Position numbers and translations under genes: made by a program | The notes under the pieces: generated by a model | The model's database searches: none | What the model saw: only the letters and a program-made list of their open reading frames with translations | Told to the model about the DNA's origin: nothing | Assembly (NCBI GenBank): GCA_035996225.1 | Contig: DASYJS010000370.1 | Location: forward strand, 3,917-67,916 | Length of the DNA stretch: 64,000 nt | DNA from: Mycobacterium sp. | GTDB taxonomy: Bacteria > Actinomycetota > Actinomycetes > Mycobacteriales > Mycobacteriaceae | Direction: 5' to 3' | Shown: piece by piece, positions 12,150 to 16,140 of the stretch | Numbering within the stretch: position 1 is the stretch's first letter | Layout of the letters: the number at the start of each line of letters is the position of its first letter

Positions 12150-13727
12150 ATGGATAATACGGCCCAAACTCCGTCCGGCATCCCGTTGCAGCCCGTATAC
12201 GGGCCGGCGGATAGAAGCGCCGAGCCGCCGGCGCCCGGGGAGTTCCCCTTCACACGGGGCAACTTCGCGTCCGGCTACCGGGGCAAGTTGTGGACTTTTC
12301 GGCAGTACTCAGGCTTCGGCACGGCCGAGGAATCCAACCGCCGTTACCGGTATCTGCTCGAGCAAGGGGGGACCGGGTTGTCGGTGGCGCTCGACCTGCC
12401 CACGCAATGCGGATACGACTCCGACGATCCCGAGTTCGGCGAGGAGGTCGGCCGGGTAGGAGTCGCGGTCGACACCCTGGCCGACTTCGAGATCTTGTTC
12501 GACGGCATCCCGTTGGACAAGCTCAGCACGAGCATGACGATCAACGGAACGGCGGCGATCCTGCTGGCGTTCTACGTCGCCGCCGCCGAGCGCAAGGGCG
12601 TCCCCCGGGAGAAGCTCACCGGCACCATCCAGAACGACATCCTCAAGGAGTACGCGTCACGCGGCACCTGGATCTGGCCGCCGGAGCCATCACTGCGATT
12701 GATCGCCGACACCATCGAGTTCTGCGCGGCCGAGGTTCCGAGATTCAACGCCATTTCGGTGGCCGGTGCGCATTTCCGTGACGCCGGAGCCAACGCGGTG
12801 CAGGAGATGGCGTTCACCCTGGCCGACGGCGTGACCTATTGCGACACCGTCGTGGAACGCGGCCGCATGACGATCGACCAGTTCGCCCCGCAGATCTCGT
12901 TCTTCTTCTACACCCACGGGGACTTCTTCGAGGAGATCGCCAAATACCGTGCGGGGCGCCGCCGTTGGGCGACCATCGTAAAGGAGCGTTACGGGGCGAC
13001 GACGGCCAAGGCGGCGATGTTCCGGTTCGGCTGCGTCTGTGGCGGTGCGTCGCTGTACGCGCCACAGGCCCACAACAACATCGTCCGGGTGGCCTACGAG
13101 GCCATGGCCGCGGTATTGGGCGGTGTCCAGTCGATGTTCACGGCGGCCTGGGACGAACCATTCGCCCTGCCCACCGAGGAAACCACCACACTGGCGCTGC
13201 GCACCCAGCAGATCCTCGCGCACGAAACGGGAGTTGCCAGCGTCGCGGACCCGCTGGGCGGCTCCTACTTCGTCGAGGCGCTGACCGATGCCACCGAGGC
13301 CCGCATCATCGAGATCATGTCCGACCTCGAACACCACGGCGGAATGGTCCACGCGATCGAGGACGGTTACCTACAGGGCCTGATCGCCGACGAGGCGTTC
13401 AGGATCCACCAGGACGTCGAAGCGGGCACCCGGCCGGTCGTCGGGGTCAACCGGTTCGTGACCGAGGATCCGCAACACGATGTCGTCACCTATGAGCTCG
13501 ATGCCGAGGGCCGCGACCTTCAGCTGAAACGGCTCTCCAAGGTGAAGGCCGAAAGAGATTCGGCCACCGTCGAATCCAGCCTTGCGGCGCTCTCGCGCGC
13601 CGCCGAAGGAAACGACAACCTGATGCACATGCTGATCGACTGCGCTAACGCGTACTGCACGGTCGGAGAAATTGTTGGCACACTCAAAGCGGTGTGGGGC
13701 GAATTCCAGCAACCGGTGGTGTTCTAG
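12150..13727 (+). CDS. Acyl-CoA mutase large (substrate-binding TIM-barrel) subunit, split type
   Basis: FPFTRGNFASGYRGKLWTFRQYSGFGTAEESN, GLSVALDLPTQCGYDSDD, TIQNDILKEYASRGTWIWPP, RTQQILAHETGV. ATG at 12150 preferred to TTG at 12129. No fused B12 domain. Confidence 0.92.
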   Translation: MDNTAQTPSGIPLQPVYGPADRSAEPPAPGEFPFTRGNFASGYRGKLWTFRQYSGFGTAEESNRRYRYLLEQGGTGLSVALDLPTQCGYDSDDPEFGEEVGRVGVAVDTLADFEILFDGIPLDKLSTSMTINGTAAILLAFYVAAAERKGVPREKLTGTIQNDILKEYASRGTWIWPPEPSLRLIADTIEFCAAEVPRFNAISVAGAHFRDAGANAVQEMAFTLADGVTYCDTVVERGRMTIDQFAPQISFFFYTHGDFFEEIAKYRAGRRRWATIVKERYGATTAKAAMFRFGCVCGGASLYAPQAHNNIVRVAYEAMAAVLGGVQSMFTAAWDEPFALPTEETTTLALRTQQILAHETGVASVADPLGGSYFVEALTDATEARIIEIMSDLEHHGGMVHAIEDGYLQGLIADEAFRIHQDVEAGTRPVVGVNRFVTEDPQHDVVTYELDAEGRDLQLKRLSKVKAERDSATVESSLAALSRAAEGNDNLMHMLIDCANAYCTVGEIVGTLKAVWGEFQQPVVF

Positions 13728-14162
13728 ATGGCGGTAAGAGTTCTGGTGGCCAAACCCGGCCTCGACGGACACGACCGCGGCGCCAAGATCGTCGCGCGCA
13801 CGCTGCGCGACGCGGGCTTCGAGGTCATCTACACCGGCATCCGGCAACGTATCGAAGACATCGCCTCGATCGCGGTCCAGGAAGACGTCGCCGTTGTGGG
13901 CCTGAGCATCCTGTCCGGTGCGCACCTGGCGCTCACCGCGCGCACCGTCGAAGCGTTGCGCGCCGCCGACGCCGCGGACATCGCCGTCGTCGTCGGTGGA
14001 ACCATCCCGCACGCCGACGTCCCCAAACTTCTTTCTGCCGGTGCCGCCGCGGTCTTTCCCACCGGAACACCGCTCGACACACTGGTGCGCGAAATCCGCA
14101 CCCTGACCGGCACCCCGCAACCCGCCCTAGAGGAAGCAGAGGAATCGTGCGCATCGGAGTGA
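13728..14162 (+). CDS. Acyl-CoA mutase small cobalamin-binding subunit
   Basis: DxHxxG (GLDGHDRGAKIV), SxL (GLSILSGAH) and GG (VVVGGTIP) B12-binding motifs. The ATG directly abuts the large-subunit TAG. Confidence 0.92.
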   Translation: MAVRVLVAKPGLDGHDRGAKIVARTLRDAGFEVIYTGIRQRIEDIASIAVQEDVAVVGLSILSGAHLALTARTVEALRAADAADIAVVVGGTIPHADVPKLLSAGAAAVFPTGTPLDTLVREIRTLTGTPQPALEEAEESCASE

Positions 14163-15103
14163 TGATCGGGCCGGAGCGCGGGGATTCCGCGCGCAAGGTC
14201 ACCAAGATGCTGGCCGACATCGACTGGGCCGAAACCGCAGGCCTGGACAGCGCCTGGATTCCGCAGATCCCCAACGATTTCGACGCACTGGTGGCGATCG
14301 CCCTGATGGGGACGCGCAGTACCCGTATCGAACTGGGCACCGCGGTCGTCCCGTTGCAGGCGCAGCACCCAATTGCGCTGGCCCGTCAAGCTCTATCAGT
14401 GCACGCCGCCACCGGTGGCCGGCTGGCGCTCGGCGTTGGACCATCGCACCACTGGATCATCGACGACATGCTCGGGCTGCCCTACCAACGCCCGGCCGGA
14501 TACACCCGCGACTACCTCGAGGTGCTGCACGCGGCATTCACCAACCCCGGCCCGGTCGACGTGGAGAACGACACCTTCCGGGTGCACAACCCGCTCGACC
14601 TGGCTCCGGTGGCACCGGTGCCGGTGCTGGTAGCGGCGCTCGGGCCGGTGATGCTGACGATCGCCGGCGAGCGCGCCGACGGCACCGTGTTGTGGATGGC
14701 CGACGAACGCGCCGTGGCCGAGCATGTCGTGCCGCGGATCACCAAGGCCGCCGACAACGCCGGCCGCCCGGCCCCGCGCATCGTCGCGGGCATCCCGGTA
14801 TGCCTTTGCGCGCCAAGCGAAGTCGACGCCGCGCGCGAACGGGCCAACCGGATTCTGGGCGAGGCCGAGGTGTCGCCCAACTACCAGCGGCTGCTTGGCT
14901 ACGGCGATGCCCAAGACGTCGGCGACATTTGCGCGGCCGGCGACGAGAAAGAAATCCTGGCCCGGATGCGCCGATTCGCGGACGCCGGCGTGACCGACCT
15001 ATCGGTGCGCCTGCTGCCGATCGGCGACAACCGGGACGAGCTGATCGCCTCCAAACGCCGGACCCGCGAGATGATTGCCGCGCTCGCAGCGGAGTTGCGG
15101 TGA
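14147..15103 (+). CDS. LLM-class (luciferase-like) probable F420-dependent oxidoreductase
   Basis: VRIGVMIGPERGD..., LDSAWIPQIPNDFDAL, GRLALGVGPSH. GTG at 14147 with GGAAGCAGAGGAA upstream (alternative ATG at 14162). The Arg-rich 150-aa extension in the ORF track is out-of-frame readthrough of the mutase small-subunit gene region. Confidence 0.85.
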   Translation: MRIGVMIGPERGDSARKVTKMLADIDWAETAGLDSAWIPQIPNDFDALVAIALMGTRSTRIELGTAVVPLQAQHPIALARQALSVHAATGGRLALGVGPSHHWIIDDMLGLPYQRPAGYTRDYLEVLHAAFTNPGPVDVENDTFRVHNPLDLAPVAPVPVLVAALGPVMLTIAGERADGTVLWMADERAVAEHVVPRITKAADNAGRPAPRIVAGIPVCLCAPSEVDAARERANRILGEAEVSPNYQRLLGYGDAQDVGDICAAGDEKEILARMRRFADAGVTDLSVRLLPIGDNRDELIASKRRTREMIAALAAELR

Positions 15104-16140
15104 CACCGGGAAACCCCGGACCTCTGGCGGGAACACGCATCCTCGAAGTCGGCACCATGCTGGCCGGCCCGTATGCCACCATGCTGCTCGCCGACCTTGG
15201 CGCCGAGGTCACCAAGATCGAGCCCCGCGGCGGTGAAATCTCGCGCGGTGTCGGCCCTGCCTATTTCGCCAGCCTCAACCGAAACAAGTCCAGCATCTGC
15301 CTGGACCTGAATTCCGATGCGGGACAGCAACGGTTGGGCGAACTGGTGGGCGACTCCCACGCACTTCTGGTGAACCTGAAACCGTCCGCGATCCGCCGGC
15401 TGGGGCTCACCTATGACGAGTTGGGACGGCACAACAAGCGGATCGTCTGCGTGGCTATCACCGGCTTCGGCCTGCACGGCGGCGACGATCCGGCCTTCGA
15501 CTATGTGGTCCAGGCGGGTTTCGGTATCGCCGCACTGACCGGAGATCCGGACGGCCCGCCGACGCTGCCCGGTTACTCGTCAGCCGATAATTCCACCGGA
15601 ATGTGTGCGGCACTGGGTCTTTTAGCTAAGATCATCTCCGGCACCGGCGGGCAAGTCGATGTGTCGCTACGCGACGTCATGCTGTCACAGCTGAACTATC
15701 ATGCGTCGGCTTATCTCAACAACGGCGTGGAGCCGCAGCGGCGGCCGAACGGTGCGCACTCGTATTACGTTCCTGCTCAGCTCTTTCCGACTGCCGACGG
15801 CTATTTGGCGCTGTTCATCACCCATGACGGGTTCTGGAATTCCTTTGCCACCGAGGCGGGTATCGGCGGTTTCGACACCATGGCCGAGCGGGTGGCCCGC
15901 CGGGACGAGGTGCTTGCCGTCGTCACCGCGATGCTGGCGACCGACACCGCCGCGGGTTGGGAACGGCGACTGCGTCCACTGGGAGTGCCTGCCGCGGCAG
16001 TGCGGTCGCTGCCCGAGGCCCTCAAAGCGACTCCGGAAGTGGTTGTCACGGCAGGTGATTTCCGCCTCGTCGGTAGTCCGATCCACGTTTCCGGCTATCA
16101 GCCCGACTACCGGCCGCCGCCGGAGCTGCCCGAGGAATAG
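15100..16140 (+). CDS. Family III CoA-transferase (CaiB/BaiF family)
   Basis: LAGTRILEVGTMLAGPYATMLLADLGAEVTKIE, NRNKSSICLDL, and the active-site Asp context YSSADNSTGM. GTGA start/stop overlap with the upstream gene. Confidence 0.88.
   Translation: MTPGNPGPLAGTRILEVGTMLAGPYATMLLADLGAEVTKIEPRGGEISRGVGPAYFASLNRNKSSICLDLNSDAGQQRLGELVGDSHALLVNLKPSAIRRLGLTYDELGRHNKRIVCVAITGFGLHGGDDPAFDYVVQAGFGIAALTGDPDGPPTLPGYSSADNSTGMCAALGLLAKIISGTGGQVDVSLRDVMLSQLNYHASAYLNNGVEPQRRPNGAHSYYVPAQLFPTADGYLALFITHDGFWNSFATEAGIGGFDTMAERVARRDEVLAVVTAMLATDTAAGWERRLRPLGVPAAAVRSLPEALKATPEVVVTAGDFRLVGSPIHVSGYQPDYRPPPELPEE

Follow-up and report, generated by a model that had tools for sequence, protein, structure and literature searches.

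Why does a mycobacterium with a complete methylmalonyl-CoA mutase (MCM) carry a second coenzyme B12-dependent acyl-CoA mutase, and on which substrate could this enzyme act? The question is raised by a four-gene operon at positions 12150-16140 of a 64,000-nt stretch of DNA from Mycobacterium sp. (assembly GCA_035996225.1, contig DASYJS010000370.1, positions 3,917-67,916). The whole stretch is called the window here, and all coordinates follow its numbering. The operon encodes the two subunits of a mutase, an oxidoreductase of the luciferase-like monooxygenase (LLM) class and a CoA-transferase. Based on sequence comparison, we lean on balance towards a catabolic, adenosylcobalamin (AdoCbl)-dependent mutase with split subunits and its own MeaB chaperone, which would use the mono-CoA ester of a di-acid bulkier than methylmalonyl-CoA.

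The first gene (12150..13727, + strand) encodes the large, substrate-binding subunit of 525 aa. It matched the mutase domain PF01642 with 655 bits over the full length of the model (1-512 of 512) and TIGR00641 with 661 bits at a cut-off of 304. A B12 domain was not found within the open reading frame 12129-13727. Since the homologues are nearly all 525 aa long, the start was set at the ATG at 12150, in a frame that is open from 12129. The best PDB matches were HcmA (4r3u, 506 bits) and human MMUT (486 bits), and such matches to solved mutases are decisive for the predicted fold. The second gene (13728..14162, + strand) encodes a cobalamin-binding small subunit of 144 aa (PF02310, 92 bits; TIGR00640, 148.7 bits at a cut-off of 57). 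This protein contains DGHDRG, a DxHxxG base-off/His-on motif, as well as SIL and GG.

The TAG of the large-subunit gene (13725-13727) abuts the ATG of the small-subunit gene (13728) with zero gap. The third gene (14147..15103, + strand) starts with a GTG that overlaps the small-subunit gene by 16 nt (TGA at 14160-14162), and the purine-rich GAGGAAGCAGAGGA lies upstream of this start. Its product of 318 aa (homologues 313-318 aa) belongs to the LLM class (PF00296). It is a member of TIGR03564 (F420_MSMEG_4879; 341.6 bits, cut-off 234), a subfamily whose name derives from MSMEG_4879. For FbiC, which is needed for F420 synthesis, an FbiC/CofH match of 534 bits, over its cut-off, was found in the genome. 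Thus the LLM protein is encoded in a genome with F420 biosynthesis, and its use of F420 is predicted. The fourth gene (15100..16140, + strand) shares a GTGA overlap at 15100-15103 with the LLM gene and encodes a family III CoA-transferase of 346 aa (PF02515, CoA_transf_3, 267 bits). The nearest structures were the formyl-CoA transferase-like 10uh, YfdE and SUGCT. The catalytic Asp is retained (AFDYVVQA versus YDTIIQA) and pairs in the alignment with its counterpart in YfdE and 10uh. Because transferases scored 122-154 bits and the Far racemase 63 bits, the protein is nearer to true transferases, and an alpha-methylacyl-CoA racemase is less likely. A preliminary description of this DNA had claimed a split mutase with an abutting DxHxxG subunit, these three junctions, and an F420/LLM enzyme and a CoA-transferase as partners. 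Domain matches and direct reading of the sequence bear out these points.

The substrate pocket was then compared residue by residue, using HMMER alignments to the solved structures 1req, 2xij, 6oxc and 4r3u and the numbering of the P. shermanii mutase. The Tyr of WTFRQYSGF corresponds to MCM Tyr89 and the Arg of EYASRGTW to MCM Arg207, the residue assignment made in the preliminary description. In HcmA of 2-hydroxyisobutyryl-CoA mutase (HCM) these positions hold Ile and Gln. His244 is retained too (alignment to 1req, 2xij and 6oxc). Six other positions differ from MCM, namely F117L, Y243A, H328G, Q330V, H364F and N366A, in addition to L368W. All six replacements go toward smaller or more hydrophobic side chains. 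In terms of motifs, the MCM sequences GYH, R(T/F)H(S/T)QT(S/A)G and QSLHTN are replaced by GAH, RFGCVCGG and QSMFTA.

As a test for class specificity, eight close relatives of the large subunit (75-100% identity) were tabulated against seven MCM-type proteins (four fused MutB, three split), with paralogues taken from the genome of the window and from others of the same class. In 31 alignment columns the residue was invariant within each group yet different between the groups, and the six positions are among these columns. Isobutyryl-CoA mutase (ICM)/IcmF-type sequences from the same genome set match MCM at Y243, Q330, H364 and N366 and have Phe at 89 and Gln at 207, where the large subunit has Tyr and Arg. 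The Tyr/Arg pair rules out an ICM or HCM identity. Sequences of the ethylmalonyl-CoA mutase (ECM) type, an enzyme that accepts a larger substrate than MCM, have H328G and L368W in common with the eight relatives and carry Pro at 366 (N366P). Unlike the relatives, with their signature L/A/G/V/F/A, they keep Tyr243 and Gln330. In view of structural work on MCM, HCM and ECM, the changed positions presumably contact the acyl group or line the pocket. Since six positions invariant in MCM are replaced, the pocket would not be MCM-type and only partly ECM-like. As far as these alignments tell, its signature fits none of MCM, ECM and ICM/HCM. The acid-binding residues are kept in a pocket that is predicted to be wider and more apolar. 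The earlier statement that the residues match MCM and ECM, not ICM and HCM, therefore holds at positions 89 and 207, to which it referred, and these two understate how far the enzyme departs from MCM.

We corroborated the separate character of the large subunit by a quick maximum-likelihood tree that took in MutB, split MCM, ECM and ICM/IcmF sequences. The close relatives formed a monophyletic clade (SH-aLRT 100) on a long branch outside all of these groups. The preliminary description had taken the enzyme to be a paralogue distinct from housekeeping MCM, and the tree agrees with this. Identity of the large subunit was 43-44% to actinobacterial MutB, including that of its own genome, and 37-39% to ECM-type proteins. 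Within the clade, identity was 75-95% across five actinobacterial families, and members were found in Mycobacterium, Nocardia, Rhodococcus, Gordonia, Streptomyces, Actinomadura and relatives of Frankia. Of 301 genomes sampled evenly across the class (tallies that include seven unpublished genomes), 22 had a copy with at least 75% identity, among them all nine sampled genomes of the window's genus. Below these matches followed a gap down to about 50% identity. One more genome, the unpublished G014, has a copy at 60%, which was not used for any claim. A library of 1.84 billion representatives contained one neighbour over the full length, with 69% identity and 802 bits, and the next match scored 540 bits.

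The many matches at about 50% identity are split mutases in which the MCM pocket is canonical throughout. Thus an 'archaeal-style' split MCM does exist in actinobacteria, as a separate protein. We also surveyed 106 representatives of split-type mutases (480-800 aa). Most pocket signatures were unique and many were non-canonical; many representatives retain Tyr/Arg and vary at positions 243, 328-334 and 364-368. The clade would therefore be one of many unexplored specificities, and it is unusually conserved and widespread among split mutases with odd pockets. A further pocket variant was seen in another locus (L047, G187:C6:176867-181414), where a split mutase paralogue keeps Tyr89, Arg207 and GYH and has RFFSGCSG and VHVMGW.

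The same genome carries mutB, mutA and meaB together on another contig (C338), as expected from the earlier remark that mycobacteria already have the canonical enzyme. The MeaB beside mutB scored 419 bits against PF03308. A second, divergent MeaB G-protein chaperone of 297 aa (24147..25040, + strand; PF03308, 238.5 bits) is encoded in the window, 8 kb from the mutase operon. In Parafrankia and in one related mycobacterium the meaB gene lies inside the cluster. Crotonyl-CoA carboxylase/reductase (CCR) was not found in the genome, the best match reaching 85 bits at a cut-off of 378. With mutA-mutB-meaB elsewhere and no CCR found, the mutase replaces neither MCM nor ECM.

Next, conservation of the operon was analyzed in 23 related loci, which comprise named contigs of Streptomyces, Parafrankia and Gordonia and 20 further loci of about 8-20 kb. 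The genes for the large subunit, the small subunit, the LLM protein and the CoA-transferase were found together in 20 of the 23. At least one of the three loci without the LLM and CoA-transferase genes (L078) ends just beyond the small subunit. The ligase described below was syntenic in 13 and the crotonase in nine of the 23 loci, and a ferredoxin or reductase domain and a pair of acyl-CoA dehydrogenase (ACAD) genes follow in most of them. The Streptomyces, Parafrankia and Gordonia contigs have the same four-gene core together with an amidohydrolase-2 protein, two or three ligases, a Fer2-containing reductase, the ACAD pair, a crotonase, short-chain dehydrogenases/reductases (SDRs) and a TetR regulator.

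Downstream of the operon in the window, a divergent gene group follows. On the minus strand lies the gene for an amidohydrolase-related dinuclear oxygenase of 426 aa (16218..17498; PF04909, the Pfam amidohydrolase 2 family). Its product matched DitZ of Rhodococcus (8uyr, RrDitZ) with an E-value of 2e-133 over 412 residues and PtmU3 with 2e-29; both are amidohydrolase-related dinuclear oxygenases. By eye, about half of the residues are identical in the alignment to the solved DitZ structure. DitZ is described as a diiron diterpenoid hydroxylase that was studied with dehydroabietic acid (PMC13154177). On the same strand, a plant-type 2Fe-2S ferredoxin is encoded at 17856..18140 (PF00111, 58.7 bits; Cys motif visible, start codon uncertain), whose counterpart is fused to an FAD/NAD reductase in other genomes. 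Between the two genes lies a third on the minus strand (17520..17843) for a conserved protein of 107 aa. It belongs to no recognised family, with no Pfam match at E 0.01, and the name 'EthD' that it had been given before finds no support in Pfam. Two related mycobacteria have this protein with 78-80% identity and a Gordonia has it with 50%, in each case with the gene next to that of the ferredoxin.

The plus strand carries an AMP-binding acyl-CoA ligase of 471 aa (18339..19754; PF00501, PF13193), an ACAD beta-type subunit of 302 aa (19732..20640), an ACAD alpha subunit of 365 aa (20627..21724; PF02770, PF02771, PF00441) and an enoyl-CoA hydratase (crotonase) of 255 aa (21726..22493; PF00378). 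In the beta-type subunit only the ACAD C-terminal domain PF00441 was detected, and its gene is paired with an alpha gene in related loci. The nearest structures of the alpha subunit were Tcur3483 (6wy9) and 4x28. We take both to be steroid-type heteromeric ACADs, 4x28 presumably being ChsE4-ChsE5 of M. tuberculosis.

The DitZ-like oxygenase varies between loci. Among the loci searched, it occurs at high identity only in the window and in one Gordonia, which rules it out as a constant partner of the mutase. In another mycobacterial locus a cytochrome P450 is encoded near the ferredoxin, and the products scanned there included no amidohydrolase-2 protein. In the closest relative (L060:13180-15892, genome G166) a LysR gene, an NAD-dependent epimerase-like gene and another LLM gene were seen at the position of the oxygenase. 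In a related mycobacterium (L061:14087-14765, genome G186) the oxygenase is absent and the ligase downstream of the ferredoxin matches as two short fragments; here the cluster may be decaying. Upstream of the operon in the window, a protein with an MpaB/Lcp (rubber-oxygenase catalytic) domain is encoded at 3698-4810 (+ strand), near a soluble fatty-acid desaturase gene.

Several promoter regions of the window share a palindrome, which is listed here without strand. A perfect 15-bp copy, GAGAATACTATTCTC, is located at 18256..18270 in the divergent promoter between the oxygenase and ligase operons and is a likely TetR operator. A copy with one change, GAGAATATTGTTCTC, lies upstream of the second meaB (24028..24042). 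Another perfect copy is present at 57883..57897, between a TetR gene and an ACAD gene (57988-59190), and a weaker one at 57017..57031 in front of an SDR gene. The TetR-family regulator (57110..57847, - strand; PF00440), with the perfect palindrome in its divergent promoter, is a candidate repressor of the regulon. The pattern GAGAATAnTATTCTC was found at three sites (six strand matches) versus 0.02 expected by chance. Together, the three promoter regions and the one weaker site span 40 kb. The palindrome is kept at the same place in the related loci L060, L061 and L065 and lies elsewhere in L064. A TetR protein with 67% identity to that of the window is encoded within the Parafrankia cluster. 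With a candidate operator common to the meaB, oxygenase and ligase promoters, the chaperone of the B12 mutase would be tied to the oxygenase and beta-oxidation operons. This suggests one TetR regulon that is split into three pieces in the genome. A separate catabolic island at 28042-33915 lacks the palindromic operator; it encodes a KstD-like flavoprotein, an IclR regulator, a C-C hydrolase, a flavin monooxygenase of the aromatic-ring type and an extradiol dioxygenase of the LigB type.

The preliminary description had assigned the four genes to a single pathway. The translationally joined operon is in favour of this part, and the limit to four genes does not stand. The functional unit is larger and also comprises the ferredoxin-dependent diiron oxygenase, the ligase, the heteromeric ACAD, the crotonase and the dedicated MeaB.

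How could these proteins work together? The full-length PF01642 domain, the DxHxxG subunit and the second meaB argue for a mutase that is competent with AdoCbl, an activity that is predicted. Because the carboxylate clamp is kept in a wider, apolar pocket, the substrate is expected to be substituted malonic or succinic acid in the form of its mono-CoA ester. The resemblance of the ACAD alpha subunit to the presumed steroid-type enzymes Tcur3483 and 4x28, and of the oxygenase to DitZ and PtmU3, is counted in support of a bulky compound. The mutase would move the thioester carbon in a 1,2-shift and thereby interconvert a 2-substituted malonyl-CoA (alkyl, alicyclic or 2,2-disubstituted) and the corresponding substituted succinyl-CoA, as one step in the catabolism of a branched or ring-bearing carboxylic acid. 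The second MeaB would load it with the cofactor. The family III CoA-transferase could form the thioester or shift CoA between the two carboxyls of the di-acid, and the F420-dependent LLM enzyme may carry out an alcohol/carbonyl redox step. Among the neighbouring co-regulated genes, those for ferredoxin and diiron oxygenase would serve for hydroxylation, the ligase for activation, and the heteromeric ACAD and crotonase for a beta-oxidation-like processing. The mutase operon would be fed by these genes or feed them. The sequences themselves show what the genes encode, how they are joined and kept in synteny, which pocket residues are present, that the clade stands apart, and that there are a second MeaB and a shared operator. 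Which class of substrate is used, in which direction the reaction runs and in what order the steps follow, including transfer, rearrangement and redox, we infer.

Several points weigh against this reading. One clade member (genome G235) has no LLM and CoA-transferase genes downstream. The DitZ-like oxygenase is inconstant: it is missing from the loci of the closest relatives, and Streptomyces and Parafrankia have instead an oxygenase of the same superfamily that is nearest to 4dzi/PtmU3. In front of the mutase operon itself no copy of the operator was found, even when 3 mismatches were tolerated. The pocket-lining role of the changed residues is presumed from structural work on related mutases and from class-specific conservation. 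Finally, a literature search found no paper on the clade and none that assigns a substrate, so that the function is a prediction.

A more specific version of the proposal, which we put forward as a rather unlikely one, is that the operon removes quaternary carbons during the aerobic breakdown of terpenoid-type acids. The ferredoxin-dependent diiron oxygenase would hydroxylate a methyl group on the alpha-quaternary carbon of an acyl-CoA. The F420-dependent LLM enzyme and further oxidation would convert it to a carboxyl, which gives a 2-methyl-2-alkylmalonyl-CoA. Next, the B12 mutase would move the thioester onto the remaining methyl, resulting in an alkylsuccinyl-CoA with a tertiary carbon, and the CoA-transferase would reposition the thioester, on which the heteromeric ACAD and the crotonase would then act. 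If true, this would be a new type of B12-mutase reaction and a new bacterial route for gem-disubstituted carbons.

In the alternative that survives best, which we still consider improbable, the substrate has no free carboxylate and both residues hold another polar group (hydroxyl, keto or amide) of a large acyl-CoA. For example, the enzyme could act like pivalyl-CoA mutase (PCM) and move the thioester directly away from a quaternary carbon in a terpenoid acyl-CoA. A pocket far more hydrophobic than that of MCM would suit such a compound, as would a neighbouring oxygenase whose relatives use terpenoid acids with a quaternary alpha-carbon as substrates. However, the non-carboxylate classes that were compared have Phe/Gln (ICM/IcmF-type) or Ile/Gln (HCM) in place of Tyr/Arg, and a dicarboxylate-type CoA-transferase is translationally coupled to the mutase.

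A second split MCM isozyme that converts succinyl-CoA to methylmalonyl-CoA and, with a CoA-transferase, serves a succinate/propionate shunt like scpA-argK-scpB-scpC of E. coli, is less probable still. It would explain the conserved Tyr89, Arg207 and His244 and the CoA-transferase in the same operon, and it agrees with the databases, which label the large subunit 'methylmalonyl-CoA mutase family protein'. Against it stand the six replaced positions, which are invariant in fused MutB and in split MCM. In addition, the split enzymes with an intact MCM pocket form a separate actinobacterial clade at about 50% identity. The large subunit also stays below the cut-off of NF006944, the equivalog model of MCM (580.7 bits versus 876), a shortfall that is partly due to the missing fused B12 domain. 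With mutAB-meaB already in the genome, a housekeeping MCM identity is ruled out by pocket residues, clade position and gene content.

An ECM-type enzyme in an ethylmalonyl-CoA-like assimilation route is slightly less probable again. H328G, L368W and the loss of Asn366 are common to ECM sequences and the window mutase, and Tyr89 and Arg207 are kept in both. Yet identity to ECM-type proteins is low, the two branch apart, ECM keeps Tyr243 and Gln330 and has its B12 domain fused, and CCR was not found; low identity, separate branching and the missing CCR rule out ECM itself. The ligases, the oxygenase and a presumably steroid-type ACAD make up a catabolic context. A biosynthetic mutase that makes an alkylsuccinyl unit for a natural product, as split mutases of the broad group do in the matlystatin and actinonin clusters and as proposed for MatB/ActD (hexylmalonyl-CoA to pentylsuccinyl-CoA), is the least probable of all, since MatB/ActD are reported to have only a small number of close orthologues, every one of them in a gene cluster that includes an EMC-like pathway (PMC5719088), whereas the loci examined contained no genes for CCR, non-ribosomal peptide synthetase, polyketide synthase, AsnB-like protein or N-oxygenase, and high identity over five families with kept synteny fits a shared catabolic role.

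The catabolic di-acid mutase that we favour would have several implications. In this cluster, vitamin B12, coenzyme F420 and a recently recognised class of diiron oxygenases come together in a single catabolic unit. There are not many acyl-CoA mutases, and with every newly found specificity a pathway was opened up (ECM, HCM, PCM and the benzylmalonyl-CoA mutase of auxin breakdown). Once the substrate is identified, it would be clear why environmental and opportunistic mycobacteria put B12 to a second use, and the enzyme is a possible biocatalyst for the rearrangement of bulky branched di-acids.

Compared with known systems, the window mutase resembles MCM (1req, 2xij, 6oxc) in its PF01642 barrel, in Tyr89/Arg207/His244, in AdoCbl binding via DxHxxG and in the MeaB-type chaperone. 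It differs from MCM in having the B12 domain as a separate gene and no MutA-like partner, and also in its distance from actinobacterial MutB, its six pocket changes and its separate clade. ECM (MeaA/Ecm type), which was identified in actinobacterial genomes by signature and not by name, has the carboxylate-binding Tyr and Arg too, and its pocket is enlarged at the same H328G, L368W and lost Asn366. In contrast to the window mutase, ECM is fused to its B12 domain, keeps Tyr243/Gln330, has RTYAGH instead of RQYSGF and works with CCR. HcmAB (4r3u) shares the split large and small subunits and is the top-scoring solved structure, whereas it has Ile/Gln for Tyr/Arg and keeps GYH, HCQT and LHTN.

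MatB/MatQ and ActD, the proposed hexylmalonyl-CoA mutases of matlystatin and actinonin biosynthesis, are likewise split actinobacterial mutases for which a long alkylmalonyl-CoA was suggested (PMC5719088). Their genes lie in biosynthetic clusters beside those for CCR and an epimerase, and their orthologues are few, unlike the widespread, catabolic clade of the window; they were set apart by their descriptions. The nearest worked-out pathway parallel would be the iaa operon of Aromatoleum aromaticum. It encodes IaaL, a family III CoA-transferase that carries out inter- and intramolecular CoA transfer, IaaGH, a split benzylmalonyl-CoA mutase, and IaaF, an ACAD, and the three act in this order (PMC8360864). 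Thus the same trio of enzymes handles a bulky substituted succinyl/malonyl-CoA there, IaaG being likened to the large subunit by description only. In contrast to the cluster of the window, the iaa operon serves an anaerobic auxin pathway in a betaproteobacterium and has no F420 enzyme and no oxygenase. In summary, the window mutase belongs to the AdoCbl acyl-CoA mutases and probably has a new specificity, within a type of system that is already known.

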